Positions 1-25,634 of a stretch of DNA of 32,863 bases are shown here, one piece after another. Position numbers and translations under genes: made by a program. The number at the start of each line of letters is the position of its first letter. Within the stretch, counting starts at the first letter, position 1. Location: IMG/VR virus record IMGVR_UViG_2700989508_000029. The stretch is one strand, 5' to 3'. This DNA is from a virus (taxonomy: Duplodnaviria; Heunggongvirae; Uroviricota; Caudoviricetes). The notes below the pieces were generated by a model. It ran no database searches and was not told the origin of the DNA. It was given only the letters and a program-made list of their open reading frames with translations.

Positions 1-411
1 ATGCCTGCCCCCGTCGTCCTGATCCTTGCGGCCGGGCGTGGAGAGCGCTTTCTCGCCTCCGGGGGAAATACCCATAAGTGTATCGGCTGGCGTCAGTCCC
101 CGGAGGTTGCGCCTTATCGCTGGCCATTTGAAGAAAACGGGAGAACTTTCGACCTTGCGATTGAACCGCAGATTACGACTAATGATCTGCGTCTGATGGT
201 GAGGCTGGCTCTTGCCGGCGGAGGAATAACAATTGCCACTCAGGAAACTTTCAGGCCATATATTGAAAGCGGTAAGCTTGTATCGCTGCTTGATGACTTT
301 CTTCCACAATTTCCGGGCTTCTATCTGTATTTCCCACAGCGTCGCAATATTGCACCAAAGCTCCGCGCCCTGATTGACTACGTCAAAGAATGGCGGCAGC
401 AATTGGTTTAA
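1..411 (+). CDS. LysR-family transcriptional regulator, C-terminal (substrate-binding) fragment; 5' end lies outside the window or the gene is truncated
   Basis: ORF runs to the window start; the C-terminal sequence (GGGITIATQETF...GKLVSLLDDFLP...FYLYFPQRR...LRALIDYV) resembles a LysR effector-binding domain; E. coli-like GC; sits outside the att repeat as chromosomal flank. Family assignment from motif memory only. Confidence 0.55.
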   Translation: MPAPVVLILAAGRGERFLASGGNTHKCIGWRQSPEVAPYRWPFEENGRTFDLAIEPQITTNDLRLMVRLALAGGGITIATQETFRPYIESGKLVSLLDDFLPQFPGFYLYFPQRRNIAPKLRALIDYVKEWRQQLV

Positions 412-537
412 ATAGCTGCACCTGCACTGCCTGATGTCAGAACAGTATTTTGATGAATTGCCAAGGTTACAATGGCACAAATGCGGCACAGGAGGAAACG
501 TGGTGTATTTAAATATGGGGTAACTCTTTGATTTTAA

Positions 538-556
538 TGGTGCCGATAATAGGAGT
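538..556. repeat. att core direct repeat (attL-type junction): tggtgccgataataggagt, identical to the 3' end of thrW at 31420..31438
   Basis: Exact 19-bp match seen in sequence; extends to about 24 bp with one mismatch (tt[t/g]aatgg...). An integrase gene starts 143 bp to the right. Confidence 0.8.
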
Positions 557-698
557 AAAACACTCGATTAATCTCGTGTTAATGCCATCACCTACGACCA
601 TTACTAATTGATTGAATCTTATAGAAAAATCATCATTTTCTATGCGTCACAATCAATTTTCACATTACAAACGCTCCGACACTTTAGCCGGAGATTTT

Positions 699-1976
699 AT
701 GAGATACAAGCCTAACCAATACTTAATCTGTGATTCTTACGGTAACTACTATTTGAGGATCACGTTGCCTGTGTATATGCAGCCCTTTTTTGAAGGAAAA
801 AGGACGTTTGTCAGGAGTCTACATACAAGTAATCTTCGTGTTGCACGTAGAAAGCGTGATCAGATTGCAGATGAATACCATTGTCTACGGGAGAGTGTCG
901 CCCCTGTAAACAGCACAATAGAGAACACGCTGGAGCTGTTACGCAGTAAGGCTAAATACGCCAAAACAGCTACCAGAATGCAAGATACAGCGTCTTCGTG
1001 TCCGTCATTGCTTAAAATTCTTGAAATCTACCTGACAATTAACAGCACGAAGAAGAAGCCAGCCACTTTAGCTAAGGCAAGAAAAGCGGTAGAGATGTTT
1101 CTCTCCTACCGTAAAAAGCCTGATATTGCATTGCAAGATGTGAGCCGCACCACTGTTACAGGCTGGATTGAACACATGCAAAAAACCCTTTCACAACAAT
1201 CAATTGCAAATTATATCAGCCCAATGGCCCAGCTATGGGAGTTAGCTTCATCACGTTACCACGATGCGCCAGAAAGGGCGCTCTCCCCCTGGCGAGGGCA
1301 TAGGCTTGATGTGGCACAAAGTAGAGAGAGCTATGAGGCATTTTCTAACAAAGAGCTATTGCAGGTGTTGCAAGTATTTTCCGGTAATTCAGCAGAAAAC
1401 AAAGAAATGATGGCTTTGTGTCTTATCGGTGCTTATACAGGTATGCGGATCAATGAGATAGCAAGTCTCACAATAGACGATGTGAAAGAGATCGAAGGTG
1501 TGCTGTGTTTTGAAATCACACAGGGAAAAACGAAAGCTGCGGCGCGTGTTGTTCCTGTACATAGCCTTATCACTCCATTGGTGTTATCTCTTCGTGAAAA
1601 GCCTCACAATGGCTTTTTGTTCTATCACGCCAGCATTACAGAGCGTGCTGACGGTAAACGCTCTACGTGGCATACACAACGATTTACAAGAGCTAAACGA
1701 AAGGCTTTAGGGGAAAAGGGAACAGAAAGGAAGGTGTTTCATTCTCTGAGACACGGAGTAGCACAGCTTCTTGATCGAAATCAAATTCCAGAAGACAGGA
1801 TCGCCCTTCTCCTGGGCCATACACGCGGCAATACAGAGACATTCCGCACATATAGCAAGAATGCAGCTTCTCCAGTAGAGCTTAAAAAATATATTGAGCT
1901 TCTACGCTACCCTGAAATAGAGAAAGGCTTATCAATCAATAAAAAATCAAATTTAAGGCGTAAAACAACGCCATAG
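699..1976 (+). CDS. tyrosine site-specific recombinase (integrase) of the left element
   Basis: Catalytic-domain motifs in order: MRINEIASLTIDDV (Arg), HSLRHGVAQLL (H-x-x-R), LLGHTRGN...TFRTYSK (His/Tyr). ORF track begins at a TTG at 612; I prefer the in-frame ATG at 699 with GGAG 5 nt upstream (ATG at 642 is also possible). Lies next to the att repeat. Confidence 0.75.
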   Translation: MRYKPNQYLICDSYGNYYLRITLPVYMQPFFEGKRTFVRSLHTSNLRVARRKRDQIADEYHCLRESVAPVNSTIENTLELLRSKAKYAKTATRMQDTASSCPSLLKILEIYLTINSTKKKPATLAKARKAVEMFLSYRKKPDIALQDVSRTTVTGWIEHMQKTLSQQSIANYISPMAQLWELASSRYHDAPERALSPWRGHRLDVAQSRESYEAFSNKELLQVLQVFSGNSAENKEMMALCLIGAYTGMRINEIASLTIDDVKEIEGVLCFEITQGKTKAAARVVPVHSLITPLVLSLREKPHNGFLFYHASITERADGKRSTWHTQRFTRAKRKALGEKGTERKVFHSLRHGVAQLLDRNQIPEDRIALLLGHTRGNTETFRTYSKNAASPVELKKYIELLRYPEIEKGLSINKKSNLRRKTTP

Positions 1977-1983
1977 ACGCAAT

Positions 1984-2020
1984 AAAGAGGCTTCAACATA
2001 ATTGGTAGCCTCTTTTATAA
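1984..2020. terminator. putative bidirectional rho-independent terminator between convergent genes
   Basis: Hairpin aagaggct...agcctctt (8-bp stem, ~14-nt loop) with A/T-rich flanks, between the integrase stop (1976) and the stop of the 2057..2770 gene. Confidence 0.4.
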
Positions 2021-2056
2021 TTACATCGTTACAGAGCGTTTTAGAGGCATTTACGG

Positions 2057-2770
2057 CTATTCCTGTTTAAAGGCAGGAGTAATAGTGTCTTCACCTTCAC
2101 TACTTGATTTTTCAGTGTTAACACGTTTTTTCATATTAGCCCCAATGTTCTTAGATGGCTGTGTTTTGAGAGCTACAGTGTTTACAGTGCCATAAGAAAC
2201 TAATCTGATTTGTTCAAAGCTAAGATCAAATACCAGAGATTCGCTTGCCTCTTCTGTGTATTCGATGCCTGTTAAAACAACGTTCTCAAAAGTTTTATTT
2301 TCTGTAACAAGAAGAAAAGGCTGTCTACTGTCCATAATCTGATTCAGGTAATCAATAGCTAATGATCTTCTGTTCCCGTTCACCCCTGCACTCTTTAACA
2401 AGCCAGGATCGCTTTTAATCGGTGTTTCAGTGATCCTTCCTTTAAGAGAAAACTTATTGTTTTTAATTTGAACGTGATCAGACACAGTAGCACCATTTTC
2501 TACGGGGTAGCTTGTAACATCTGCCGAACGTCTCACGTTCACATCGTCAACACTATCAAAGGCCAGTGCCATATAATTTTCATAAACGTCATTGCCAGAA
2601 GATGCCAAGCCACTGGTAACAATAGCAAATCCATTTTCGCCTTTTGTTGTATTAGCTTTGCTATTTTCGTTTTTTGTAGAGTTTATATCTTGTTCTGCTT
2701 TGTAAACAGCCTGAACGTGTTGTTCTGGAGTATTTGCTGCACGTATGGTTAAAATCCCGGCGGTCGCCAT
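2057..2770 (-). CDS. hypothetical protein (237 aa), last gene of the low-GC operon
   Basis: Long ORF, low GC; no recognisable motif. Confidence 0.5.
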   Translation of the reverse strand: MATAGILTIRAANTPEQHVQAVYKAEQDINSTKNENSKANTTKGENGFAIVTSGLASSGNDVYENYMALAFDSVDDVNVRRSADVTSYPVENGATVSDHVQIKNNKFSLKGRITETPIKSDPGLLKSAGVNGNRRSLAIDYLNQIMDSRQPFLLVTENKTFENVVLTGIEYTEEASESLVFDLSFEQIRLVSYGTVNTVALKTQPSKNIGANMKKRVNTEKSSSEGEDTITPAFKQE

Positions 2771-2804
2771 AATAATAATTTTCCTTGTAATGTTATGGCG
2801 GGAA

Positions 2805-4634
2805 TTACCCGCCGTTAGATTGTCCTGATAAGCTGGTTAATGTTAATGATTTCAAGAAGCTATCCCGACTTGCTCTCGCTGTAAAATCCACATAATCGCT
2901 TAATCTTGATGTGTCAGAATTAATAGTAAGAGGAACCTCCGTTACCACTTCAAAGGTTGGATTTATATTAAACACAGGAGATAAATTATAAGCTGGAGTT
3001 GTCATTGCAAGATTATTTAAAGCACCCTGTTTGAGATTGGTTATCGGTGCTTCGCTGACTGACATTTTTACATCTGACACAGAAGAAGCATTATCATCGA
3101 AAAGCAATCCCTTAATCGTGTTAAAGAGAGAATGACTATTATCAGGTGCAGTTGTTGCAGTTCCAGCGCCTTTATATTGGTCAGGAACGAGATTAGAAAG
3201 ATGCTGTTTCATCCCTTCATTGCTTAATGGCGGTGCATCACCTAAATTTTTCTGAATAGCATCTGTCTTATCATCATTACGATTAAACCAGTTTACAATC
3301 TTCATAATAGCCTCAAAGAGACTTCCTACAGCTTCTCCCAGCTTCGTAAAATACGGAGTGAGATTAGAAAGGTTTTTCATAAACTCTTCCGTTACTTTTG
3401 GATCGAGAGATTTCATAAAGCCGTCTACGAATGCTACTTGTCTTGCATCAGAAAGCTGTGAAAGCTGTCTGTTTAGTTCTCTGAATTTAACGATAGATTC
3501 TTGCTGTGTTTCTGTTAGCCATTTTCCAGAGGCTTTTTGCTGATTAATACTTTCTTGTACATCTTTAACGGAACGTTGCCAATATTTTGACGTAAGCATC
3601 AAATCATCGCCCAGGTCTTCTAAACGTTGTCCAATTTGGGAGTCTGAAAACCCTTTTTTCATCATTCCATTAACAGCCTTAGAAATTAATCCGGCTGGAT
3701 TATCAGCAAATTTTTTAAGGTCGCTTTTGTTAATAACACCGATGTTTAGAAGTTCATTAATAGCATTATCACCGCCTTTCCATTCAGATTTTCCTTTCTT
3801 GTCTTTCAAGAATTCAGCTTCACTGTAGGATTTTGCGGCACGTTCCCTAACATCTTTCATCTGATCCAGGTATTTCCTAGCCCCTTGATCACCCATCATA
3901 GAGTCAACGCCGTTTCTATAGGCCCATTCTGTAATGTTGTACATCTGGTTAACGTCTACACCGCCCAGCTTGGCCCGTTGAATTAGCTCCCCTTGCGTCT
4001 CTGCGTTAGCGAAGCTGTTAGCCATAAATTCAGAGGTTTTACTAACAGCCATCACGCCAGCGGCAGCCGTAGCGCCTCCAAATAACAGAGCGCCCATCGT
4101 GGCGGAATTCCCTGATCCTCCCTTAACGGGGGCTAATTGAGTTTTTCTATTGCCATTAATCTTACGTTGTTGTTGTTGTAAGCGTTTCATTTGGCTATTC
4201 ATACGTGCAAGCGAGATAGCGCCTTGTTCGTATTGTTTCGCTATCTCTCTAGCCTGTGCAATAGCTTTGTATTGTTCCGCTACAGAGAGGCGGTGCATTG
4301 CACTTATAGAGCTTGACACATCAAGGAGTTTTAATTCTGCTTTCTCCTTACGTGCTGCTATTTGTTGCTGTTGCCTTGCCTGTGCTCTTGCTGCGGCAGC
4401 TTGTGCTCTTTGATTCTGTTTTTCGGTTTTAGCTTTCTGTTGAGCAATCTTGTCTACTTCGTTTTGTGCTTTCTTATAGCCTTTAGTGACATTATCAAAT
4501 CTTAATTTAGCTGGCTTGATGTTTTCTGCGAATTCCTTTAAGCCTGTAATAGAGTCTTTCGCTTTTTTCAAGCTGTCTTTATCTACACTAAATGTTACTG
4601 TGTTCTTAATTTTAGAAGTGTTAATTTCTAACAT
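2805..4634 (-). CDS. hypothetical 609-aa protein with N-terminal coiled coil and a Gly/Ala-rich hydrophobic segment (tape-measure-like or injection-like; speculative)
   Basis: ATG at 4634 preceded by aaGGGGA; Q/A/R/K-rich heptad-like N-terminal region (QRAQAAAARAQARQQQQIAARKEKAEL); GALLFGGATAAAGVMAVS hydrophobic stretch; no Walker A or other catalytic motif seen. Confidence 0.55.
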   Translation of the reverse strand: MLEINTSKIKNTVTFSVDKDSLKKAKDSITGLKEFAENIKPAKLRFDNVTKGYKKAQNEVDKIAQQKAKTEKQNQRAQAAAARAQARQQQQIAARKEKAELKLLDVSSSISAMHRLSVAEQYKAIAQAREIAKQYEQGAISLARMNSQMKRLQQQQRKINGNRKTQLAPVKGGSGNSATMGALLFGGATAAAGVMAVSKTSEFMANSFANAETQGELIQRAKLGGVDVNQMYNITEWAYRNGVDSMMGDQGARKYLDQMKDVRERAAKSYSEAEFLKDKKGKSEWKGGDNAINELLNIGVINKSDLKKFADNPAGLISKAVNGMMKKGFSDSQIGQRLEDLGDDLMLTSKYWQRSVKDVQESINQQKASGKWLTETQQESIVKFRELNRQLSQLSDARQVAFVDGFMKSLDPKVTEEFMKNLSNLTPYFTKLGEAVGSLFEAIMKIVNWFNRNDDKTDAIQKNLGDAPPLSNEGMKQHLSNLVPDQYKGAGTATTAPDNSHSLFNTIKGLLFDDNASSVSDVKMSVSEAPITNLKQGALNNLAMTTPAYNLSPVFNINPTFEVVTEVPLTINSDTSRLSDYVDFTARASRDSFLKSLTLTSLSGQSNGG

Positions 4635-4648
4635 TTAAAATCCCCTTA

Positions 4649-4852
4649 TTAATCATTTTTATCACCTTCTTTACTTAAGAAATGGTGTAGAGCCTGATCA
4701 ATACTCTCGTTTAATCTGAACATACGGGCTTTTACTCCTTCATATGGAACATCTAGGAGAGAACAGAGATATTTCAGATTTAACAAGCCTCTAGAATCAT
4801 TAGCATCTAAATGTACGTGTACACCATTTTTTGATTTCAAAATCACTTCCAT
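4649..4852 (-). CDS. hypothetical small protein (67 aa)
   Basis: ORF with GAGGTG upstream of the ATG; lies between the terminator and the 609-aa gene. Confidence 0.4.
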   Translation of the reverse strand: MEVILKSKNGVHVHLDANDSRGLLNLKYLCSLLDVPYEGVKARMFRLNESIDQALHHFLSKEGDKND

Positions 4853-4865
4853 ATTTTAATCACCT

Positions 4866-4920
4866 CTCAAAATTTAAAAAAATAAAAAAAAAGGCGAAGC
4901 GTGAATACACGCCACGCCTC
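4866..4920 (-). terminator. rho-independent terminator downstream of the 342-aa gene
   Basis: Read on the minus strand: imperfect GC hairpin ggcgtggcgtg...cacgcttcgcc followed by ttttttttt atttttttaaatttt; immediately 3' of the gene ending at 4937. Confidence 0.55.
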
Positions 4921-4936
4921 TATTACACGTTAAATA

Positions 4937-5965
4937 TTATTTAACAGTGATTTGAACGGAGAAGCCTACACCGTGGTTTACAACCATCTGGCTATTCTCT
5001 GTAACAACGTTAACAGCATCACCACGAGAAGATTCATAGCTATAGCTATACACCTCAGCAGGAGCGGCATTGATCAGTTCAAAAGTGCTGGAAGCAGCCC
5101 CGTAGATGTTCTGATATACATTAGAGCCTTTAGCAAACTTCGGAATCGCAACCGCATCAGAAGTCATATGTGCAAGGTGTAGCGGATCTACCAGTTTAAC
5201 AACATCAATGTTAGTTCCTGGGATAGTGAACGCTGTCACCCCTGGCAGCAGGTCACGACGCTGATACACAACGTTCCCCTCTTCCAGTGGGCTTACATAC
5301 TGGAATGCGTTTGCCATACCAGCAGAGAATCGAATTGCGGAGAAGGCTTCAGGTTTACAGAAAACAACAATACGCTCTACAGCAGACGCCTGGCTTTGTG
5401 CTTTCTCGATAATGTCAGTAGCAATCTGATCAAATTCTTTAAAAATCTTCGTGGTGTCAGTGCTGGAAGCGTTCACAGTGGCTTTCATAGCTGATACGTT
5501 AAACAGCTTGCCCCATTCGATAAGAACATCATCAGTTTTCGGTGTATAAGTTTTGCCCGAGAACAAAGAAGCAGCCAATACGCTCTCTTTTGTACGCTGA
5601 TACGCTACGTGGTGTTTAGCGATATATTCCGCATAAATATCAGTGAGTGTTTCCTGGAAATCAGTGCCAGGTTTACGTTTGCCTTGAACATCAGAAGGAC
5701 GGATCACATCTTCACGCAGGAAGTAAGGGATCTCGATCAGCCATTCTTTACCTTGTTCTCGCTTAGTAACATTGTGTTCAGAACTAAAACGGCTTGTCTC
5801 TTTGTTAAAGAGAGATTCGTTGCTTTCGACAAGCTGGGAAACAGCTACTTTATGAGATGTAACCCCTACAGAATCCGTAAAATCAAGAGTAGAGAGCAGG
5901 AAGTTACGCGTGCTGTGTGTCTGGAACAGAGGGATCAAATCAACGTAATCATTGCCTAGAATCAT
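4937..5965 (-). CDS. hypothetical 342-aa protein, possibly a highly expressed structural protein (major capsid or tail-type; speculative)
   Basis: Long ORF followed directly by a strong terminator; preceded by a 120-aa gene with an ATGA start/stop overlap pattern further upstream, an arrangement reminiscent of decoration/capsid gene pairs. No motif-level proof. Confidence 0.55.
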   Translation of the reverse strand: MILGNDYVDLIPLFQTHSTRNFLLSTLDFTDSVGVTSHKVAVSQLVESNESLFNKETSRFSSEHNVTKREQGKEWLIEIPYFLREDVIRPSDVQGKRKPGTDFQETLTDIYAEYIAKHHVAYQRTKESVLAASLFSGKTYTPKTDDVLIEWGKLFNVSAMKATVNASSTDTTKIFKEFDQIATDIIEKAQSQASAVERIVVFCKPEAFSAIRFSAGMANAFQYVSPLEEGNVVYQRRDLLPGVTAFTIPGTNIDVVKLVDPLHLAHMTSDAVAIPKFAKGSNVYQNIYGAASSTFELINAAPAEVYSYSYESSRGDAVNVVTENSQMVVNHGVGFSVQITVK

Positions 5966-5983
5966 TTATTATTATTCCTTTTA

Positions 5984-6346
5984 TTAAGAAGTGAAAACAG
6001 AATGGAACCCTTCAAGCTGGAAGCCTTTTTTAATTAATGCTGTTTTTGCTGCTTCACTTACAGCATTCAGCGCATCAGCTTTGATGCATACAAGCCCAGC
6101 ATTGCTACGTAAAACATCTACAGGTTTGTTTTCTCCAGCCGTTACAAATTCACTCATAACAACATAGATATCATCTCCTGATACATATTTAGCGCCAGTG
6201 CTGGTGATCAAGTCGCCGCATTCAACATCAGCAGGAAGAGAAGCAAAAACCTTGCTTTCTACAGAGGCAAACGGATCAGTACAATAACTTACAATATCTG
6301 TGAAAGTCTTTCGAACTGGAAACAGAGTGTCTAAATCAATAATCAT
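5984..6346 (-). CDS. hypothetical protein (120 aa)
   Basis: ATG at 6346 with GGAG upstream; its start overlaps the stop of the upstream gene (ATGA). Confidence 0.5.
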   Translation of the reverse strand: MIIDLDTLFPVRKTFTDIVSYCTDPFASVESKVFASLPADVECGDLITSTGAKYVSGDDIYVVMSEFVTAGENKPVDVLRSNAGLVCIKADALNAVSEAAKTALIKKGFQLEGFHSVFTS

Positions 6347-6555
6347 TTAGTAATCTCCTTAGCTTTTAATTTGATTAATTCATTAAGGGAAGGTGTAGAC
6401 GGAGAAGAAGGAGAAAAATATTTTTCAACACATCTTTCTACTTCTTCTACAGAACACCCAGCGTATTTAGCTACCATTTCGGTAATTTGTGGATTTATTT
6501 TCAGCATTTCATCTTTATACTTGATGATTTGCTCTTTATCATTTAAGAACAACAT
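6343..6555 (-). CDS. hypothetical protein (70 aa)
   Basis: ORF translationally coupled to the downstream gene. Confidence 0.45.
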   Translation of the reverse strand: MLFLNDKEQIIKYKDEMLKINPQITEMVAKYAGCSVEEVERCVEKYFSPSSPSTPSLNELIKLKAKEITK

Positions 6556-6904
6556 TTATATAAACCTTGTTACCTTGTTTAAAGTAAGAAATACAACTTT
6601 TAAGTTGCATAACGGGCAAAATAAAAGGCAGCATTTAGAGCCGCCTTTTATTAACTTGTACCTATGTAATTACCCTATGTTATGCATACTCCAAGATGTA
6701 TGCATAACAAAGGAAAAAAGAGGTAATAATGACACAGTATTTACTTAAGGAGGAGAAGCGGGGAGCGGAGATTTTACTCCCCTTTAACGACAAGAAGAAT
6801 TTTTAATATCGAACCAATAAAGGAAAAATAATCACCCCATATAATTATATTAACATATAATAGATGGAATGTCAAGATATTTTACAACTTTTTTGTTGCT
6901 TTTT

Positions 6905-7240
6905 TTATTCTTCTGTGATAGTGCCTAAGCGTTGAGCGAGTTCGACAAGTCCATCTCCCACATAGCGAACATCAGATTCGATATCTTCTATCCAGTTTGA
7001 TAGCTCCCATATCTGATCGGCTGTCAGGTATGCGTTTTCGCGCTTACAGAGCATCTCTACACGCTTAGAGAGGTGCTCAAAGGCATTCACAGCTAAATCC
7101 CAGTGTTTAAACGCCTCATTTAGTGACGCTGGTGTGTTTTCTTTGTATGCTTCAAGTTCAGCGCGGTTTAAAGGCAGAAGGTAATCATCCTCATAATAAT
7201 TAATTAGTGAGTAAATTGTGTCATACGTGTTTTTGTTCAT
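6905..7240 (-). CDS. hypothetical acidic protein (about 111 aa)
   Basis: ORF track gives 6905..7267; I prefer the ATG at 7240 (MNKNTYD...), which has GGAGA 8 nt upstream and sits 1 nt after the upstream gene's TAA. Confidence 0.45.
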   Translation of the reverse strand: MNKNTYDTIYSLINYYEDDYLLPLNRAELEAYKENTPASLNEAFKHWDLAVNAFEHLSKRVEMLCKRENAYLTADQIWELSNWIEDIESDVRYVGDGLVELAQRLGTITEE

Positions 7241-7241
7241 A

Positions 7242-7652
7242 TTAAAAGTCTCCATAGTGATCAGCATTATCTAGAATCTGGAAGTCTGGAACTAAGTTAT
7301 TTAGGCCATTTGTGGCGAGATAACCAACGTAGTGGTTATAGTCTTCAAATCCTAAAATCTGGTATTTGCGTAAATCAGAGCTATCAACGATATACTCTTT
7401 TCTTTTTCTAGGTTTCCAGAATACGCCAGGTGTTGAAGATAAGATTTCTTGTAAGGCGTTAAATTCATCTCCGCAAGGCACAGAGGGAGAATGTTCTATG
7501 ATCTCTGTTTTCCATTCGCCAGGGGCGCTATTTTGCTTGGTGAGCGTAACTAGCTCTTTAAAGTCTTTGCGTCTTAGAATAGATTTAGGTTTACTTAGAA
7601 GAGAAGCTGAATCCCCGATTTTCTTAACAACGTTGTTTTTTCTTTTTGCCAT
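7242..7652 (-). CDS. hypothetical protein with a basic N-terminus (136 aa)
   Basis: ORF; K/R-rich N-terminus (MAKRKNNVVKK) suggests nucleic-acid binding (inference). Confidence 0.45.
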   Translation of the reverse strand: MAKRKNNVVKKIGDSASLLSKPKSILRRKDFKELVTLTKQNSAPGEWKTEIIEHSPSVPCGDEFNALQEILSSTPGVFWKPRKRKEYIVDSSDLRKYQILGFEDYNHYVGYLATNGLNNLVPDFQILDNADHYGDF

Positions 7653-7784
7653 TATTTACTTTTCCTTTTCTTTTAAAGGAAAACACCCCGAAGTATGTTT
7701 CTAACGTGAGAAAGAACAATAACCAATACATAGCTACTATCATAATAATGTTTTCCTTTTATATTTTAATTACATAGAGAGATT

Positions 7785-8063
7785 TTAGAGAGTGGAATAG
7801 ATGAATTCTATTTCTTTATCTAGTCTTTTGAGATTGAATGTAGAGAAAGATAATTCTTTAATTTCTATAACACCGAAGTTTGATAGCTGTTTCAGCCAGA
7901 ATTTTAAACCATCTTCAGAGCACCCTGCTCGATGTAACACATCGCTATATTTTAGCGGTGTTGGCTTTCCTTTATAGAGGTAAGCAAGTGTTTCGTAGAT
8001 GCGTTTTCCTGTGTCGTTACACTGAATTCTGTCTACTTGATTTTTTACTAAATATTGAATCAT
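7785..8063 (-). CDS. hypothetical protein (92 aa)
   Basis: ORF with GGAGG upstream of the ATG. Confidence 0.45.
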   Translation of the reverse strand: MIQYLVKNQVDRIQCNDTGKRIYETLAYLYKGKPTPLKYSDVLHRAGCSEDGLKFWLKQLSNFGVIEIKELSFSTFNLKRLDKEIEFIYSTL

Positions 8064-8074
8064 AACCCTCCTTA

Positions 8075-8767
8075 TTAAAATGGAATATCAAAGTCTTCGT
8101 ATACTTTGGGATGTTTCTTAGCAAAATATGCCTCAATACCATTTGGTAGCTTTAACCTGTGCTTATAGGCTAACGATGTTGCAAATTCTATAAATGATGC
8201 TCCTCCTGTTCTAGTATTCTTCTGCTTGATAATAAGAGAGGCAAAATTCTTTAACACATCCTCCTCATTATCATTAGCTACCTTTTCACTTGATGAAACA
8301 GGTGTTTCTTCCGTCTCCCACGGTAAAGGCGTATCCCAATCATCATCAAGAACATCAAAAGAAGGCTGTTTATGGCCTTTAGGTTGTTCCTGTGCTTCTT
8401 CTGCCTCAGAAAGATCAGAGAGTGATGATTCTCCTGGGGGAGTAATATGTGCATCTGTGAGAGGGAGAGCATTGTAAATCAAAGATGAAATATACGGATC
8501 AGGATGTGGGGATGTTTCTAATAATCCCATCTCTTTAAGATCGTTTATCTTACGTTTAATTGTTGACGCTGAAGACTTAAAAATCTTAGCTAATGTTTCG
8601 TGACTTTCATAACAATTAAGGTTGTTTTCCTGATAACTAAGGAATCGAAAATAAAGCACAATATGTAATAGATCTAAATCTTTTCCTTGAGGGAATTTAT
8701 CAGAATAAATCTTTGATACATTATCAAACGTGTCATAGTGTTTTGTAAAAGTTAGTTGGTTAATCAT
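8075..8767 (-). CDS. winged-helix DNA-binding protein, replication-initiator/replisome-organiser-like (putative Rep)
   Basis: N-terminal pattern LHIVLYFRFLS...ETLAKIFKSSASTIKRKINDLKEMGLLE resembles phage replisome-organiser / RepA_N winged-helix domains; acidic C-terminus. Start placed at ATG 8767 (AAGGAG 8 nt upstream) rather than the ORF-track 8791. Confidence 0.5.
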   Translation of the reverse strand: MINQLTFTKHYDTFDNVSKIYSDKFPQGKDLDLLHIVLYFRFLSYQENNLNCYESHETLAKIFKSSASTIKRKINDLKEMGLLETSPHPDPYISSLIYNALPLTDAHITPPGESSLSDLSEAEEAQEQPKGHKQPSFDVLDDDWDTPLPWETEETPVSSSEKVANDNEEDVLKNFASLIIKQKNTRTGGASFIEFATSLAYKHRLKLPNGIEAYFAKKHPKVYEDFDIPF

Positions 8768-8820
8768 TAAAAATCTCCTTGATGTAATCACGCTCTATGG
8801 CGCTACTATGGTGATAAAAA

Positions 8821-8991
8821 TCACTTGCTTTTATTTGAGAGTGTTTCAGCCTCTCTTTTCAACATATCAAGAATGTAATCTGTGACAGTGATCCGTCTAC
8901 TTCTGGCTTCTTTAAATAACACCTGAAATACTTCATCAGGAATATGAAAGCAAGTGCGTGGTTGTCTTTTCTTTTCTGTAGTTTCGCTCAT
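8821..8991 (-). CDS. ribbon-helix-helix (CopG/Arc-like) DNA-binding protein (about 56 aa)
   Basis: Start at ATG 8991 (MSETTEKKRQ...) with a strong AAGGAG 6 nt upstream; sequence PRTCFHIPDEVFQVLFKEARSRRITVTDYILDML fits a beta-strand/helix/helix RHH fold. Confidence 0.5.
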   Translation of the reverse strand: MSETTEKKRQPRTCFHIPDEVFQVLFKEARSRRITVTDYILDMLKREAETLSNKSK

Positions 8992-9010
8992 AGTTTTCTC
9001 CTTCTCTTCT

Positions 9011-9199
9011 TTACTCTGTTTCAGATTCTTTTTCATTTTTTCTTAGTTCATCAATAATCTTGAGTGCTTCATTGAAGCAAGCTGCTCGCTCTGGATAACC
9101 TCGACTCCTTGCCATATTACGATTCATTACTACTTGGTGGCGTGTAAGCTCACCTTTTTTAAATGCCTGGACGACGTGCTCAGGTGTAAACCATTTCAT
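9011..9199 (-). CDS. hypothetical small protein (62 aa), first gene of the operon
   Basis: ATG with AGGAG 8 nt upstream; an upstream promoter-like region contains three aaaacgctct repeats (9430..9600). Confidence 0.45.
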   Translation of the reverse strand: MKWFTPEHVVQAFKKGELTRHQVVMNRNMARSRGYPERAACFNEALKIIDELRKNEKESETE

Positions 9200-9855
9200 A
9201 AAAAACTCCTTATTCAGTTAAAAGAAAAAACACCTTGCAAGCCTGACGGCTTCAAAGTGCATTGATTTTGATTATTTAGAGAAGAATGTTTTTCTGTCCC
9301 TCTAATACCTATTATTACATATAAAGAAACATTTGTCAATACCTTTTCATAAAAAATCTGATCTTTTTCATGCACTTACATTTTTTCTTAGCAATTCGTG
9401 CTCTCCTATGTAGTGCTATTCTTCCTTATTGTCTAAAACGCTCTAAAACGCGTTCTAACGAGATTTTGATAAAAGCAATACATTCCCTTATCTAATGGCT
9501 GTTTAGCTCGCCAGAGGCTTATTTAAGTGGCTTATTTTGTATTTGTTAGATGATGATAGATATAAAACAGAGAGTCACTTTATAAAACGCTCTGTAAAGC
9601 CCTGTAGTGAGTTTATTATATGTAGGCAATGCGTTTCCATTCCCTACCCTGCTTAATGTTGTTAGAGAAGCATTTAGACCCCTTATTTTTAATTACCTAA
9701 AGTATCCTCTATACATCTCTGTTATGAAACACCTCTGAATCCTTCATAAAACACATTATGACGCAAAGAACACTTTTCTAAGGTGATTCCCTTCCTGAAT
9801 GCTGTTTCTTGCGTCAGAGAGCTACACAGAGCTTATAAAGATATTATTAATAATA

Positions 9856-9916
9856 AAGTAGATAAAGTAAGTAAGATAAGTAAGTAAGATAACTAAGATA
9901 GATAAGATTAATAAGA
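9856..9916. repeat. AAGTAAG / AGATAA short tandem repeat array
   Basis: Seen in sequence: gtagataaagtaagtaagataagtaagtaagataactaagatagataagattaataagat. Confidence 0.7.
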
Positions 9917-9961
9917 TCAGAATTCTCTTTCGGTGTCGCCTCTGGCTTTTCCACCGAAAAC

Positions 9962-10117
9962 AATTACACGACTACAGAATGTAGGAAGTGAAATTGTATT
10001 GAGGCTTAGTGAAATTACACGAGGAAAGCAGAGTGTAATTGAGCTTTAGCCGCTCTCTTCGAGTAATTACACAACTACAGAGAATAACGAGAGTTATTAA
10101 ATGTAGGAAGTGGAATT
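9962..10117. repeat. two copies of aattacac(g/a)actacaga...atgtaggaagtg(a/g)aatt, plus further TTACAC/GTGTAA half-sites
   Basis: Copy 1 at 9962..9993; copy 2 at 10066..10117 with an ~18-bp insertion; palindromic ttacacgaggaaagcagagtgtaa in between. Confidence 0.65.
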
Positions 10118-10340
10118 AAGAGGTAGAGAGTTACACATAAGCAATCAGTATGATTGGTTAGGTGATTACTCTTCTGCGCACAGCGCAATAGTATTTCTTC
10201 GTGGGCGTTACCGCCACGATAGTTACACGAAGAAAGTAACGCTTTGCTTTCGGTGTGAGCGGAACGGGCCAGCCACGAAGCCCGAAAGGTAGCGGAGTAA
10301 GGCTGCTTGCCAGAGAGTGAAGCTAACGCCGGAAGGCAAA

Positions 10341-10502
10341 AGATCATATATATATAGTATAAAGAATATTATTATGATCTAATTAATAATCTAATATAGT
10401 TTTATTAATAGTCTTATTGTAGTTCACAGTGACCTACCCCCTAGCTCACTATGACCTACCCCCTAGGTCACAGTGACCTATATAGTATAAAGAATATTAT
10501 TT
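10341..10502. repeat. 23-bp direct repeat tatatagtataaagaatattatt (10341..10363 and ~10479..10501) flanking a block of tgacctaccccctag repeats
   Basis: Seen in sequence; the inner block (10425..10479) holds two direct tgacctaccccctag copies plus an inverted gtcacagtgacc; a third related copy lies at 10703..10738. Confidence 0.7.
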
Positions 10503-10526
10503 ATATTATTTAATTATAGTATTGGT

Positions 10527-10626
10527 GGAACTCATTTCCTAGGTAGGTAGGAACTCATTTCCTAAGTAGGTAGGAAACCACTTCCTAGGTTACTTCCTAA
10601 ATAGATCGGAAATCATTTCCTAGGTG
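10527..10626. repeat. iteron-like array of (c)atttcctagg units (about 5 copies, ~22-bp period)
   Basis: ggaactcatttcctaggtaggtaggaactcatttcctaagtaggtaggaaaccacttcctaggttacttcctaaatagatcggaaatcatttcctagg. Confidence 0.7.
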
Positions 10627-10641
10627 TTATTTATTCTTATC

Positions 10642-10699
10642 GGGTATCAGTTTTGATAGGGGTATCAGACTTGATAGGGGTAACAGAATTCTGTGGGGG
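10642..10699. repeat. three ~19-bp direct repeats ggtatcag(nn)ttgatagg
   Basis: gggtatcagttttgataggggtatcagacttgataggggtaacagaattctgtggggg. Confidence 0.7.
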
Positions 10700-10739
10700 T
10701 AGTTCACTATGACCTACCCCTAGCTCACTGTGAGCTACC

Positions 10740-11680
10740 GTTACATTCAATCATCTTCCGATGTGTAATATCGTTACATTCAATAATTAGTCTATGTAAC
10801 ATATCGTTACTACCAACTTTCTTACAAAGAGCATTTCAGATAGCTGAATGTAACCTCTCGTTACATCCATTTGTCACATAGCACTCTGTGTAATGCCTTT
10901 CTATGTGTGTGCCATAATCCCCCCTATATTCCCTGTGTAAATCATAGAATATCCCTAACTTATTCCTGTGTAATTCCATACTAAAAATTCAATGAAAAAA
11001 GTAGCTTAAAAGTTCAATTCTTACTTTCTTCACTTTTACATCACTTTCGCAAATCCTTGTGTAATGCGGCTTACAGAGCACCATCAGAAATTGTTGGCTA
11101 AAAATTGTTCTGCTTGTTTCTTAATGAGTTTTCTTGTTTGTGCAAATTTTAAAATTTATTTTGTTTTTACAGCCTTATTTCGTGTAATGCGTGGCATAGC
11201 AAGCCCTTTTCTTGTGTTGTCAAGACATTTGGCAACGTTCAAACATCTGTTTAGAAATGCCAAATTGTTGATCTAACAAATAAACCTGTATAAACAGAAC
11301 ACCATTTAATCTATTCCCCTGTGTAATCCACTACATCACACGATAAAAACAAAAAACTTTTAATTATATTTCATAGCACACAAAAGTCAACAGAAGCCCT
11401 CTCGTGCTCCTACGTAAAAAATCCATCACTTTTCCCCTGATACATCAACTCAAGGCGTTCTATGTGTTCCTTAGTGCATATTACGATTATTATGTTAAAT
11501 GGATTTTGGCCTATATTTTGACCTGCACCCGCATAAACACTGGTTTCATCGCTTACAGCCCTTGTGAGACGTGGTGCTGTTTCTAGCATCTGATCCGACA
11601 TAAAACCGATCATTCTCGTGTTTAGTGAAAGTTTAGTGAGAGACATTACAGAAAGGCTTTCTGTGTAATGATTTAATAGG
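10740..11680. repeat. dispersed tcgttacat (4 copies, 10740..10870) and ctgtgtaat (at least 7 copies) motifs across a region with little coding potential
   Basis: Seen in sequence: accgttacattcaat, atcgttacattcaat, atcgttactacc, ctcgttacatcc; then ctgtgtaatgcc, cctgtgtaaatc, cctgtgtaattcc, cttgtgtaatgcgg, tcgtgtaatgcgtgg, cctgtgtaatcc, ctgtgtaatgatt. Confidence 0.6.
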
Positions 11681-11793
11681 TAAAAACGATGTTGATTACG
11701 CAAGAAAATTCCTTGCTGATATTTGGGGATTCTGGATTTTCCAGATCGGGGGGCGCTGAAAATCGCGTTAAGCACTTCTCGCAATCTAGCCAT
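11410..11793 (-). CDS. questionable ORF (127 aa) inside the repeat tract
   Basis: ATG start but no Shine-Dalgarno; overlaps the ctgtgtaat repeats; unremarkable composition. Listed only because nothing else covers the span. Confidence 0.2.
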   Translation of the reverse strand: MARLREVLNAIFSAPRSGKSRIPKYQQGIFLRNQHRFYLLNHYTESLSVMSLTKLSLNTRMIGFMSDQMLETAPRLTRAVSDETSVYAGAGQNIGQNPFNIIIVICTKEHIERLELMYQGKSDGFFT

Positions 11794-12137
11794 AAGGGAA
11801 GGGATATAGGTATTTAGATGTATTTATAGCTAATTTATAGCTATTTATTTTTTATTTACCTTTATTAAAAATAACCTTATAAATCAATAAGATACATAAT
11901 TATCTGTTTATATTCTAATCAATTAAATCAAGTTTAATACCCTTAAATAACCTGAAAATAGCCTTAAATACCCCAATAATTAATTTTAAGGTTTTCCGTG
12001 TTCTCTTCTGCATTATGAAAATGCAAAATAAGGCACAAAACAAGCTCACATACGCATTAAACACACATCACCTATACATCCCTATGCCAAGCAATGAAAA
12101 CAGCGTTAGAATGCGTCCTGTTGCGTTCTGGAGATTT

Positions 12138-12296
12138 TCAGAAATCCTCTCTAAGCCATTTCAACTCACTAAGGAGTTTTCTTTCTTCGTTCTCTCGTTG
12201 CTTTCGCTCTAGCCAGGCTTTTCCCTCTGGCGTAGACAGGAACTTACGAGCGTGAATCTTGCGGTTATTACGTTTGATAGCTGCAATGTTTTTCAT
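12138..12296 (-). CDS. possible small basic protein (52 aa; MKNIAAIKRNNRKIHARKFLSTPEGKAWLERKQRENEERKLLSELKWLREDF), absent from the ORF track
   Basis: My own translation of the minus strand; GAGG 6 nt upstream of the ATG; K/R-rich. Confidence 0.25.
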   Translation of the reverse strand: MKNIAAIKRNNRKIHARKFLSTPEGKAWLERKQRENEERKLLSELKWLREDF

Positions 12297-12900
12297 CGTG
12301 TGCCTCTGTATTCATATGAAAATTAACAAGTTACATACTACACAGGGAGACTACGCATAAAACACAATACAAGTAAAGATACATTTTCAAGACAATAGGA
12401 GCCATAAAGCGCCTTTGATGGTTATACCAAAAAATAAGCGCCGTAGGCGTATCCACTAAAAAGGGCTTTTTCACAAAAGCTATGAAGTCTTAGCAGTTCT
12501 TCTCTTATCAGGCACCCGTTGTACTCCGGTGGACGAAACCGTGCTAGAGCTTGATTCTTTCCCGATCAAGTTAGGTTTTGAAGAGGTGGGCTTTAATCCA
12601 CTATGCACTTAAAACTCTTCCCATCATTTAGCCTGTTTATCCTCTGCAACGTCTCACGACGTGTAGCATCATTGGACACCGCGCCAGGTGTGGAACATCT
12701 TGCTAAGAGTTTTGGTAGAAGGTTTAGAGACGGTGGCACGTCTTCCAGCTTCAAAGGAACTTGTTACGAGGTTGAGCCTGGGAACTACTCGCCCATACGT
12801 GTTACACTACCAAAGCCCATAACAACGTATAGGCGTTTGTAAGTGATAACAGAAGATACAATTTCTTAGAGAAGTTAAGCTAAGTTATTGATTTTCTTAA

Positions 12901-12917
12901 TGGTGCGATAATAGGAA
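12901..12917. repeat. degenerate third att-like site (tggtgc-gataatagga), putative junction between the two tandem elements
   Basis: Matches 16 of 17 positions of the att core with one deleted C; the left flank (ttgattttcttaa) resembles the flank of the 538 copy; the right flank (atacccccaaaagtacccccaaa, ~12965..12990) resembles the motif between the P4-type int and thrW (acccccataagtaccccca, ~31285..31308). Confidence 0.45.
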
Positions 12918-13257
12918 CAAAACAAACAATAAAAATACATTGATATATAAAGACATTTTCCCATTACATCTTTGTAGATACCCCCAAAAGTACCCCCAAA
13001 CAATTTTCTCTCACCACCATTTGCACATAAAGCAGCCATGTACAACTGGTAGTTGAACAGGCGGGTAGACCGTTCGTTCAGTAAATACCTGATATTTCCG
13101 CCAACGAGAAATTGCGTTGGCTGGCAGAGTGCAAATTTGCACGATAACCTAACCCATTGATTCTTTCGAAAACCCGCAATGCAGGAAGCCGGATAACACC
13201 ATTTTATAGCTCCGATCCCTTCAAAGTGAGGGGTAATTTGCCAAAACAGAGAGAGCA

Positions 13258-13545
13258 TTACTGTCTCTGGCAATCTTTATCGCGATAACGCCTGAAGTAC
13301 CCTCTCGCTTCCTCATCCATACCAAGAGCCGAATGAGTCCGCTTAACTGCCTGTCTTAAATCTCCGAATCTGTCTGTAGTTGCTGGTGGGCGTGCCGCCT
13401 TACGGATACATTCAGAGCGTCTGTTTGCTGCATGTTCACGTTCTTTATCGCCATCTGCCAGCATCATGACTTCTGCCCATCGTGCGGCAGCTCTCCGGTA
13501 TAGCCCTTTTGACTCCAGCTCTTCAGCTTTCCTGTCCTTTATCAT
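13258..13545 (-). CDS. PerC-family transcriptional regulator-like protein (95 aa)
   Basis: N-terminal LESKGLYRRAAARWAEVM resembles the conserved PerC/Pch motif; basic C-terminus. From motif memory. Confidence 0.55.
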   Translation of the reverse strand: MIKDRKAEELESKGLYRRAAARWAEVMMLADGDKEREHAANRRSECIRKAARPPATTDRFGDLRQAVKRTHSALGMDEEARGYFRRYRDKDCQRQ

Positions 13546-13575
13546 TTCTGCCTCTCAGATTATATAGATAAGCAA

Positions 13576-13706
13576 AAAGGTGTTGGTTCAGTTGGTTCAG
13601 TTGGTTCAATTTGTAAAGAGCGTTGTTTTTATTGTGTTTTTTCTAAAATATTGAACCAACATCAACTCATTTTGAACCAACACAGCCCAGCTCTGAACCA
13701 ACAACA
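13576..13706. repeat. iteron module A: three tandem GTTGGTTCA units, an AT-rich spacer, then three inverted TTGAACCAAC units; putative replication-origin-like site
   Basis: Seen in sequence; 13576..13617 is the exact reverse complement of 22113..22154. Confidence 0.7.
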
Positions 13707-13744
13707 CAGCGATAGATTTGCGATTGGTCCGTTATTTTCTGGCT

Positions 13745-13795
13745 GATATTTGAGCGTATAACAGTGTTATACAGTGGTATACTGTATGGATATTA
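13745..13795. promoter_or_regulatory. operator-like palindromes upstream of the RHH regulator gene
   Basis: gtataacagtgttatac (near-perfect palindrome) and ggtatactgtatgg directly upstream of the 13805/13817 start. Confidence 0.35.
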
Positions 13796-13804
13796 CTCAC
13801 TGAT

Positions 13805-14245
13805 ATGGTCTTTGCAATGAGCAAATCTAATCTGATCGCGTTCCGCATCCCATCTGAATTGCAGGATGAGTTTAATCGGTCTGTTCTCGCTTCTGGAGGG
13901 GATAAAACCTCCTGGCTTGTTGATGCGATTCGCATGAAGCTGGGACAGCCGGAAAAGTCTATTGATTCACGAATGCTTGGGCTGGTGGAGCGCATGGAAA
14001 AAGCCGCAGCATCGCTTATTGCCGGAAAGCCGAACATCCCACCAAAGCCATATAACGAAACGGCAGTTATAAAGATCATTGCCGATACCATCCGACAGGG
14101 ATTTGATAATGGGCGTGTGATAGCTGAACGGCTCAATGAAGCAGGCTACCAAACAAAAGCTGGTAAAGCGTGGGATAAAGACATTTACAGCGCGTGGAAG
14201 CGTCAGGATAACAATATTAAAAGAATCAATACGCTGCTTCAGTAA
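13805..14245 (+). CDS. two-domain DNA-binding regulator: N-terminal ribbon-helix-helix (Mnt/Arc-like) plus C-terminal recombinase-type DNA-binding motif
   Basis: SNLIAFRIPSELQDEFNRSVL...WLVDAIRMKL fits RHH; C-terminal IAERLNEAGYQTKAGKAWDKDIY resembles the DNA-binding motif of recombinase-associated domains. Start may be ATG 13805 or 13817. Convergent with the Abi gene. Confidence 0.55.
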   Translation: MVFAMSKSNLIAFRIPSELQDEFNRSVLASGGDKTSWLVDAIRMKLGQPEKSIDSRMLGLVERMEKAAASLIAGKPNIPPKPYNETAVIKIIADTIRQGFDNGRVIAERLNEAGYQTKAGKAWDKDIYSAWKRQDNNIKRINTLLQ

Positions 14246-14274
14246 TTGATCAGTGTATAAATGATATTTATCGC

Positions 14275-15885: not shown

Positions 15886-15906
15886 GTTGCAAAATTTTTG
15901 CAACTG
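15886..15906. promoter_or_regulatory. near-perfect palindrome agttgcaaaatttttgcaact (operator-like) in the intergenic region upstream of the membrane-protein gene
   Basis: Seen in sequence; nearby gcgcgtactggtc direct repeats (x2) and the palindrome ggatttgaaatcc. Confidence 0.35.
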
Positions 15907-16736: not shown

Positions 16737-16754
16737 GCCATCCATGGCTACCAG

Positions 16755-21413: not shown

Positions 21414-21429
21414 GCGATGCCATCCATTT

Positions 21430-25624: not shown

Positions 25625-25634
25625 GGCTCCATCC

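Follow-up and report, generated by a model that had tools for sequence, protein, structure and literature searches.

P4 is an integrative satellite of 11-12 kb that resides at a tRNA gene, has its own replication, carries a copy of the packaging site of its helper and uses a small capsid, in which 11.6 kb of DNA are packaged in a T=4 shell. Its expression is controlled by termination in a structured leader RNA, and it encodes no capsid or tail structural protein but an external scaffold, Sid. PLEs, elements that resemble phage-inducible chromosomal islands, integrate by means of a large serine recombinase, and phage-inducible chromosomal islands of the capsid-forming type (cf-PICIs) are said to encode a full head and packaging module, with portal, protease, head-tail connectors and small terminase. 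The locus described here, a cluster of twelve genes in a 32,863-nucleotide stretch of DNA (IMG/VR record IMGVR_UViG_2700989508_000029, hereafter called the window), can be compared with each of these systems. The cluster is the core of a discrete 12.4-kb integrated element (window 538-12916), and we propose, with a probability of about 0.75, that it represents the early and late gene set of an integrative satellite of virulent phi92-like myophages of ~145-150 kb. The best reading of the sequence comparisons is that its helpers belong to the subfamily Stephanstirmvirinae (Justusliebigvirus, Phapecoctavirus).

The PLEs provide the closest parallel for the tail. The tape measure protein (TMP), the chaperone TAC and the hub protein BhuB of PLE are 20, 20 and 41% identical, respectively, to those of the helper ICP1 and become part of chimeric tails, and transduction falls by 96-99.9% when tmp is lost (PMC12987554). 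Like a PLE, the element would have a large virulent helper with a contractile tail, and it has its own replication initiator with iterons, and encodes its own TMP and baseplate-core protein of low to moderate identity to the helper versions. Its TMP is 50 aa shorter than that of the helper (609 against 659 aa), and the TMP of PLE11 is 95 aa shorter (PMC12987554). Unlike the PLEs, it carries a tyrosine integrase (PF00589) and sits at tRNA genes in an Enterobacterales host, with a putative helper among the Stephanstirmvirinae. It also has its own major capsid protein (MCP) and a probable cement protein, whereas PLE remodels the coat of its helper with the scaffold TcaP (PMC10002752). No PLE-type family and no sequence relationship to PLE proteins was seen in the Pfam, PHROG and PADLOC scans or in any other search.

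Other satellites supply parallels for the head. Like the cf-PICIs, the element is a chromosomal island with its own HK97-fold capsid protein, and it would depend on a helper for the rest of the virion; putative tmp genes are reported for some cf-PICIs (PMC12987554). Unlike in cf-PICIs, no portal, protease, connector or small-terminase match was found among the ORFs of the element, which would make the terminase of the helper and a mimic of its terminal repeat necessary. Ccm of SaPIbov5, from Staphylococcus aureus, is a satellite-encoded homologue of the helper MCP that changes the size or shape of the capsid and co-assembles with the helper capsid protein (PMC8569155). The element resembles SaPIbov5 in encoding such a homologue, whereas the rest of the SaPI gene set is unrelated. 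The EPIPs of Mycolicibacterium aichiense are small satellites reported to have both MCP and TMP, with smaller heads and an altered tail length; unlike the element, they carry a serine integrase and further head genes (small terminase, scaffold, head-tail adaptor and stopper), and depend on a temperate actinobacterial siphophage (PMC12822802). With P4 the element shares a similar size, integration at a tRNA gene and replication functions of its own, and its candidate packaging-site copy and its structured leader with a predicted terminator would be further parallels. Within 538-12916, however, the P4 alpha primase-helicase, Sid/Psu, delta and the P4-type integrase have no matches, and P4-type domains are found in the neighbouring island, at 22176-31254.

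Judged by its genes, the element fails the defining features of PLEs, cf-PICIs, P4 and the classical PICIs. By analogy, it might work like a blend of a PLE, for the tail core, and of a cf-PICI or Ccm, for its own capsid protein, and it would constitute a new satellite family, in that both the combination of parts and the helper lineage would be new. That it represents a new class of Enterobacterales satellites with a hybrid virion is about an even bet: the head shell and the tail core would be its own and the rest stolen, packaging would be directed by the mimic, and a late leader RNA would be read through only in helper infection. Full-text searches, in which the coverage of subscription journals was limited, found no published description of this satellite type. 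The satellite families of E. coli (P4-like, PICI, cf-PICI) are not known to include any whose helper is a large, strictly virulent myophage. If the proposal is correct, the element would be an E. coli counterpart of the Vibrio PLE/ICP1 system, and it would supply both the capsid shell and the tail core itself, two strategies that had each been observed on its own until now.

Late genes and their relatives in phi92

The cluster ends with a late operon of six genes, which code in this order for a 70-aa protein, a probable cement protein, the MCP, a 67-aa protein, the TMP and a tail-tube initiator. By homology, the 342-, 609- and 237-aa products are the MCP, the TMP and the tail-tube initiator, and their closest solved relatives are gp124, gp134 and gp135 of phi92, respectively. 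From low to high coordinates, the operon comprises:

2057-2770, minus strand: tail-tube initiator (Dit-like), 237 aa; Pfam Dit_like (PF21821) 3.4e-29, 101.9 bits against a cutoff of 24.2
2805-4634, minus strand: tape measure protein, 609 aa; phrog_16051 1.4e-54 over residues 125-609, phi92 gp134 1e-38
4649-4852, minus strand: 67-aa protein, just upstream of the TMP gene in a tail chaperone-like gene position; 31-54% identity across the family, position kept
4896-4920, minus strand: intrinsic terminator behind the capsid gene; 9-bp stem with 5 GC pairs, then a T-run
4937-5965, minus strand: major capsid protein, HK97-fold, 342 aa; Phage_cap_E (PF03864) 1.1e-14, 54.7 bits (cutoff 22.9), match from residue 22 to 341 of 342
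5984-6346, minus strand: 120-aa protein, probable cement or decoration protein, immediately upstream of the MCP gene, in the position of gp123 in phi92
6343-6555, minus strand: 70-aa protein, first late gene; 41-48% identity across the family, dN = 0 among E. coli variants

The 342-aa protein belongs to Phage_cap_E over its full length, with a score above the gathering score, and the profile of its family matched phi92 gp124 best among the solved structures (4.4e-18, positions 2-342); its identity to the MCP of the helper type is 22%. The 237-aa protein is a member of Dit_like, both by a score above the gathering score and by homology to a structurally defined tube initiator. Its best match among solved structures is phi92 gp135 (PDB 21vq_N, 1.6e-79), and the tube initiators of Pa193-type phages and of Pam3 were also found. 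It is 61% identical to the 'tail tube initiator' of phage EC_OE_11, and a 79-nt patch is 91% identical in DNA. The TMP belongs with those of the Stephanstirmvirinae, since its homology to gp134 includes the C-terminal hub-binding part and both of its ends align to the TMP of EC_OE_11. Its N-terminal 66 aa are 55% and its C-terminal 449 aa 29% identical to the latter, and the middle is unrelated; such helper-like termini fit docking to helper partners at both ends of the tail. In tblastn searches, the TMP matched 134 phage records, nearly all of them from Stephanstirmvirinae, and the TMPs of the Klebsiella (40-42%) and Serratia (31%) relatives also matched almost only TMPs of that subfamily.

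The arrangement of these genes follows that of the phages as well. The head of phi92 (T=13) is built from 775 copies of gp124, and the gene of its cement protein, gp123, directly precedes that of the MCP; gp134 forms a trimer with its C-terminus inside the hub, and gp135 forms a hexamer that starts the tube (PMC13450770). The phi92 genome measures 148.6 kb. In the phi92-like phage EC_OE_11, the cement and MCP genes are followed by neck and tail genes, then by those for sheath, tube and chaperone, by a 75-aa gene and finally by TMP and tube initiator, and the order in the element (120-aa gene, MCP, 67-aa gene, TMP, tube initiator) is that of EC_OE_11 minus the middle. The 120-aa protein has no sequence similarity to the phage gene in the same position. 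Its AlphaFold2 model is poor (pLDDT 55.7), and the top six Foldseek matches in the PDB are all decoration chains of 123-124 aa, from Bas63, Sf14 and YSD1 (probability 0.77-0.95 for the first five and 0.13 for YSD1; TM scores of 0.37-0.46). On the basis of its position and of these structural matches, it is called a capsid cement protein, an assignment that is likely but not established. The 67-aa protein had no family hit in Pfam, PHROG or NCBIfam and no similarity to the syntenic 75-aa phage gene.

The twelve genes are real, low in GC and under purifying selection. Window 400-9800 is 100% identical to E. coli O26:H11 11368 and also matches many genomes of enterohemorrhagic E. coli (EHEC) at 100%, and the RefSeq annotation of 11368 has the same twelve genes as the minus-strand ORFs 9199-2057. 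An earlier sequence-only reading of this DNA had described twelve minus-strand ORFs with good ribosome-binding sites, an account with which both the ORF list and RefSeq agree. AGGAG-type Shine-Dalgarno sites precede most of the twelve starts, and several of the junctions are close or overlapping (-4, 1, 11, 14, 18 and 19 nt), with gaps of 349 nt (6556-6904) and of 132 nt between genes 4 and 5. Starts other than those of the longest ORFs apply to three genes: that of the Rep-like protein begins at ATG 8767, that of the RHH-like protein at 8991 and that of the 111-aa protein at 7240. The foreign origin that the same reading had deduced from low GC also holds: 2057-9199 has a GC content of 38.3%, the chromosomal flanks have 52.7% and the island next to the element has 46.8%; the element as a whole (38.4%) matches phage inny (37.4%) and not the host.

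Profile scans with Pfam, PHROG, PADLOC and NCBIfam found no terminase, portal, ATPase or nuclease family in any of the twelve proteins, as that reading had stated, and for the small proteins the PADLOC and NCBIfam scans gave weak helix-turn-helix-type noise only. Its description of the 342-aa protein as an abundant-looking product with a terminator behind it agrees with the hairpin at 4920-4896, and its winged-helix Rep-like protein (238 aa in the longest ORF) was recognized by HTH_36 and by PHROG replication-initiator families. It had considered the function of the cluster unknown, a view that has to be abandoned because standard profile searches name the 342-, 609- and 237-aa proteins as phage structural proteins.

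Matches to the phage terminal repeat and early genes

A sensitive DNA search of the non-coding region of the element against 50,697 phage records (2.3 Gb) returned 65 matches, almost all of them in Stephanstirmvirinae. Three islands of similarity are of particular relevance:

9673-9694, plus strand: 22-nt island; 21/22 identical to phi92 147334-147355 and to inny 137363-137384, each of which has it once
11227-11265, plus strand: inverted repeat ATTTGGCA-N23-TGCCAAAT, from inside the terminal repeat; 38/49 identical to Klebsiella phage KP2025
11745-11790, plus strand: mimic of the inner boundary of the terminal repeat; 43/46 identical to phi92 318-363, E = 8e-9, >56 Stephanstirmvirinae records

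The annotated left direct terminal repeat (DTR) of phi92 extends from 1 to 343, so that the match at 11745-11790 straddles its inner edge, and for the related phage BME3 a DTR of 342 bp was determined independently by PhageTerm (PMC12210895). In the simplest reading, 11745-11790 is a candidate terminase recognition or cut site copied from the helper, in which the cut would fall between 11770 and 11771. The 22-nt island is shared with non-coding DNA upstream of the phage terminal repeat. As for the inverted repeat, its counterpart in the relative L026 is 31/37 identical to phage inny, at phi92 DTR positions ~136-172. All three islands are colinear and on the same strand as in the terminal region of the helper. 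The block around the boundary mimic is 98-100% identical among E. coli elements with MCPs that are only 72% identical, and the mimic was found in 426 complete E. coli genomes, always with at least 90% identity. This conservation acts at the DNA level, since an ORF that overlaps the mimic is broken in several copies. In the Klebsiella element, the variant of the mimic is the version present in Klebsiella phages of the same subfamily.

Similarity to the phages extends to the early operon (9199 to 6905), which also consists of six genes:

6905-7240, minus strand: 111-aa early protein; RefSeq coding sequence, weakly kept (26-41%)
7242-7652, minus strand: 136-aa early protein; 387 clusters of homologous proteins, most of them from Klebsiella; identity within the family 36-53%
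7785-8063, minus strand: 92-aa early protein; 38-51% identity, no family hit in Pfam, PHROG or NCBIfam
8075-8767, minus strand: winged-helix replication-initiator-like protein, 230 aa from ATG 8767; HTH_36 3e-5, PHROG replication-initiator families 2.9e-9
8821-8991, minus strand: small ribbon-helix-helix (RHH)-like protein; 50% identical to inny_185, the gene just upstream of inny_184
9011-9199, minus strand: 62-aa protein, first early gene; 31-67% identity across the family, sigma70-like promoter TTGACA-17-AATAAT (9339 to 9311)

The Rep-like protein is 32% identical to the early proteins inny_184 and Mt1B1_P17 gp053 of phi92-type phages, and together with the RHH-like protein it forms a pair that is homologous and syntenic to inny_185/inny_184. 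The 5' leader of its gene and the motif ALPLTDAHITPP are identical to those of the phages. In particular, window 8760-8808, with the ribosome-binding site and first codons of the Rep gene, has 96-100% DNA identity to the Phapecoctavirus phages Mt1B1_P17 and BI-EHEC, and 43 nt inside the gene (8429-8471) are 93% identical to the Justusliebigvirus inny. This mosaic suggests repeated recombination with different helper genera. Short DNA patches that are 91-100% identical to EC_OE_11, Mt1B1_P17, BI-EHEC and inny likewise point to recent recombination in shared cells. When all element proteins were compared by tblastn with the complete genome of inny, five had homologues (the RHH-like and Rep-like proteins, MCP, TMP and tube initiator); the same searches, extended to the proteins of the Klebsiella, Serratia and Sodalis relatives, detected no further ones in that phage. 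An AlphaFold2 model of the 136-aa protein was discarded (pLDDT 53.1).

Element boundaries, late control and distribution

The following features, in addition to the two operons, delimit the element and its non-coding end:

538-556, plus strand: distal attachment (att) repeat, an exact 19-nt copy of the thrW 3' end (TGGTGCCGATAATAGGAGT); recurs exactly at 31420-31438 within thrW, where chance would give 0 copies
699-1976, plus strand: tyrosine integrase, RefSeq start 699, longest ORF from TTG 612; Pfam Phage_integrase 3e-17, DUF6538, Phage_int_SAM_5
10416-10739, plus strand: iteron cluster, with repeats of 22-23 nt (five copies), 23-35 nt (three copies) and 18 nt (two copies)
12138-12296, minus strand: 52-aa ORF near the tRNA-proximal end (MKNIAAIKRNNRKIHARKF...); 77-100% identity across the family, above MCP conservation
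12902-12919, plus strand: degenerate att copy at the tRNA-proximal end, TGGTGC-GATAATAGGAAC compared with the 19-mer

In the metagenome contigs L074 and L058, thrW is fused directly to window 12916 and is followed by the element through to the far att, which identifies 538-12916 as an independent insertion; the DNA from 12917 to thrW in the window is a second island. The element, from 538 to ~12916, is larger than the unit delineated by the sequence-only reading. The integrase is found at the same end in all relatives. At the other end, the early operon and the tRNA-proximal boundary lie 3.7 kb apart; the DNA that separates them is nearly all non-coding, and its iterons are a probable origin of replication. 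An origin shared with the phage was considered and rejected, because the iterons of the element are absent from the inny genome. The 52-aa ORF had no family match in Pfam and NCBIfam scans. Both the ORF list and profile scans of 538-12916 are devoid of portal, protease or scaffold, terminase, sheath, tube, hub, wedge, fibre and lysis genes. Two general characteristics of satellites are thus found: the set of virion and packaging genes is incomplete (MCP, probable cement protein, TMP and tube initiator only), and the element is discrete and integrative, with a recombinase and att repeats.

The two operons are separated by the 349-nt gap, which contains the signals expected for separate control:

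6556-6904, minus strand: late-operon control region, with a sigma70-like, near-consensus promoter TTGACA-17-TAATAT (6875 to 6847), a structured leader and an intrinsic terminator (6646-6618)

The terminator consists of a 13-bp hairpin and a U-run that ends 60 nt ahead of the seventh gene. The presence of promoter, leader and terminator in this gap is the reason for reading the cluster as an early operon (9199 to 6905) and a late operon (6555 to 2057), and not as the single transcription unit that had been supposed. The leader is predicted to fold with a minimum free energy of -80.7 kcal/mol, compared with -54.1 kcal/mol for shuffled sequences (z = -6.4). The same layout occurs in Klebsiella. 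While the leader of the window measures 291 nt (6556-6846), it is ~650 nt long in most relatives outside E. coli (Citrobacter-, Enterobacter- and Kluyvera-type), where it runs from the conserved promoter to a terminator just before the 70-aa gene. An alignment of the leader of L026 (8701-9406) with those of 13 relatives yielded an RNAalifold consensus of 71 pairs, in which 94.6% of the sequence-by-pair cells are paired, compared with 38-48% when partners are slid, and 17 pairs have changed on both sides, compared with 4-10 in the slid controls; as the consensus structure was derived from the same alignment, these contrasts are inflated. The Shine-Dalgarno region ahead of the first late gene would be masked by invariant long-range pairs of the leader. 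Rfam had no family for the leader or the non-coding region of the window and seven relatives. Altogether, the predicted leader structures provide good evidence that late expression is termination-controlled.

The satellite type is common in E. coli and Klebsiella, and its late module is present in 501 of 5426 complete E. coli genomes. Homologues of the capsid protein form 52 clusters, all from Enterobacterales chromosomes, and the complete ones measure 341-348 aa; a profile of the MCP family retrieved only 244 relatives from 1.84 billion representative proteins. One gene order, in which the integrase is followed by the tube initiator (not in every case), the TMP, a small gene, the MCP, genes for ~120 and ~70 aa, the early genes and Rep, is common to the elements of E. 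coli, Klebsiella, Citrobacter, Enterobacter, Kluyvera, Buttiauxella, Scandinavium, Serratia and Sodalis; MCP identities go down to 38%. Across Enterobacterales, elements with this order occupy differing tRNA sites. Relatives at tRNA-Gly and tRNA-Leu are 13.8-13.9 kb long and bounded by repeats of 24-40 bp, and the replication module has been exchanged among otherwise near-identical elements. The MCP and TMP genes have dN/dS values of 0.07-0.12 and ~0.2, respectively, and the tube-initiator and 120-aa genes values of 0.03-0.15 and 0.09-0.19.

Some members of the family depart from this pattern. Otherwise identical copies, e.g., in NZ_CP074904.1 and NZ_CP077567.1, carry insertions of the insertion sequences IS600, IS3 or ISVsa5, including in the late module, which indicates that some copies are being inactivated. 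The distant relative L037 (3478-6704) has an MCP of 352 aa with 28% identity, the small gene, genes for 98 and 133 aa and an integrase, with no tape measure gene, and suggests that there are capsid-only variants of the same architecture. The Klebsiella version L004 (2768-5083) has extra cargo between the tRNA-proximal end and the early operon, which comprises a protein of 205 aa that contains a Phage_integrase domain, a gene for 67 aa and a Dam methyltransferase. In L135 (61-321), a distant relative from a metagenome, the small gene two upstream of the MCP matches the Pfam family PF26210 (Phage_phiTE_211), whose name comes from a gene of the flagellotropic Pectobacterium myophage phiTE; searches with the 70-aa protein of the window did not reach that family.

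Proposed life cycle, alternatives and neighbouring DNA

These data can be assembled into a model in which the element would stay quiescent at its tRNA gene and, once the cell is infected by a phi92-like phage, would excise and replicate from its own iterons. The terminator that closes the late leader would be overridden by a factor of the helper or by an early factor of the element. The satellite MCP, probably with its own cement protein, would assemble a small shell fit for ~12 kb of DNA on the portal and scaffold of the helper, and the helper terminase would recognize the terminal-repeat mimic and package satellite DNA. The satellite TMP and tube initiator would replace gp134 and gp135 in a baseplate, tube and sheath made by the helper, giving a chimeric tail. 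Interference with the helper would be an expected by-product.

Several points weigh against this model. Excision, replication, packaging, particle composition, transfer and interference are all inferred from the sequence, and assembly on the portal and scaffold of the helper is an assumption, given that the satellite MCP is only ~22% identical to that of the helper. The element has no convincing counterpart of the outer boundary of the terminal repeat, the best motif being a 12/14 match at 11005-11018, which is too weak, and the shared 46-mer could be a promoter or regulatory site of the helper that happens to sit at the edge of the repeat. The tube initiator is absent from about half of the relatives and is thus not essential to the family. 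The cement call depends on a low-confidence model and is weak in that respect. Matches in viral contigs are prophage-style predictions of 19-76 kb and not free forms of element length, and none of 24 mostly full-length metagenome contigs is circular, has a terminal overlap or ends at the proposed cut site. Finally, no helper-sensing or interference factor was identified, and seven of the twelve cluster proteins are without an assigned function.

Some of the same observations might be accounted for in other ways. The element might be a domesticated, non-transmissible anti-phage island, whose structural copies would act as decoys that poison assembly and whose repeat mimic would titrate or misdirect the helper terminase. 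A TMP with helper-like ends and an unrelated middle and an MCP with 22% identity could indeed give dominant-negative subunits, the element is frequent in E. coli and Klebsiella, and Rta, Tai and Tab are documented cases of interference with tail assembly by satellites or prophages (PMC12987554, PMC11364771, PMC10884400). We nevertheless regard this explanation as unlikely. The integrase, the intact att repeats at several tRNA sites, the Rep protein with its iterons and the uniform size of 12-14 kb would be needless for a fixed defence locus, and no PADLOC model of a known defence system was matched. Moreover, interference and transfer are not exclusive, as known satellites do both. Of the two guesses made in the sequence-only reading, it is that of a satellite particle or tail module that the evidence supports, whereas a non-enzymatic defence system obtains no direct support and might exist as a side effect of satellite interference.

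Decay or autonomy would be even harder to reconcile with the data. That the locus is the decaying remnant of a temperate relative of phi92-like phages, with a few structural genes surviving beside an integrase, appears very improbable, although some copies carry IS600, IS3 or IS4 insertions, truncated MCP fragments are present in databases and the locus lies at the position of the cryptic prophage CP4-6 of K-12. The same gene set and order persist in many genera, with all ORFs at full length and dN/dS of 0.07-0.25, the bounding repeats are intact, and the element is found alone beside thrW; if each copy had decayed on its own, the same 12-14 kb would not remain time after time, and all related phages found are virulent, with genomes of ~145-150 kb. 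The sequence-only reading had stated that clear structural homology inside an ordinary prophage remnant would refute it. The homology is indeed there, but the decaying-prophage setting is not, given a compact element that is syntenic in many genera, dN/dS of 0.07-0.2, intact att repeats and the packaging-signal mimic. A self-sufficient minimal virus, or a producer of particles akin to gene transfer agents or tailocins that would need no helper, is the least credible possibility. Two tail-core proteins are encoded, as are a capsid protein and a possible cement protein, but nowhere in 538-12916 is there a gene for a portal, a terminase, a protease or scaffold, or for tail tube, sheath, hub, receptor binding or lysis, and a tape measure and a tube initiator cannot form a tail alone.

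A satellite of phi92-like phages would have practical implications. These phages are lytic, have broad host ranges, are often isolated and have been proposed for therapy or biocontrol against E. coli and Klebsiella. Present in ~5-9% of complete E. coli genomes, including EHEC of serogroups O26, O103 and O111, the satellite could blunt their action, and it could also move DNA between strains inside phi92-like particles. It would moreover offer a natural experiment on how an HK97-fold capsid protein 22% identical to that of the helper uses a foreign portal, and it bears on the question of why satellites replace proteins that are ejected with the DNA.

The chromosomal surroundings of the element call for a few further observations. 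K-12 has CP4-6 at the same chromosomal position, with different cargo beside intF. Window 400-556, which contains a truncated LysR gene (the yagP equivalent) and the att repeat, is 97.5% identical over 157 nt to Escherichia phage phi458, under a gene annotated as 'tail assembly protein'; this match is probably host DNA carried in that phage record. The neighbouring island (12917-31419) is P4-like, with a P4-type integrase (30040-31254) and a P4 alpha-like primase-helicase (22176-24935), and also encodes Ash, AntA, PerC (13258-13545) and Abi_2 (14275-15297). In addition, it has P22-type ejection proteins, namely gp7 (20281-20958), the gp20 Inj_translocase (18860-20281), a DUF2824 protein (20952-21413) and a 701-aa protein (16755-18860). 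Two tandem satellite-like islands thus lie at this locus, each with its own versions of proteins for co-ejection with DNA.

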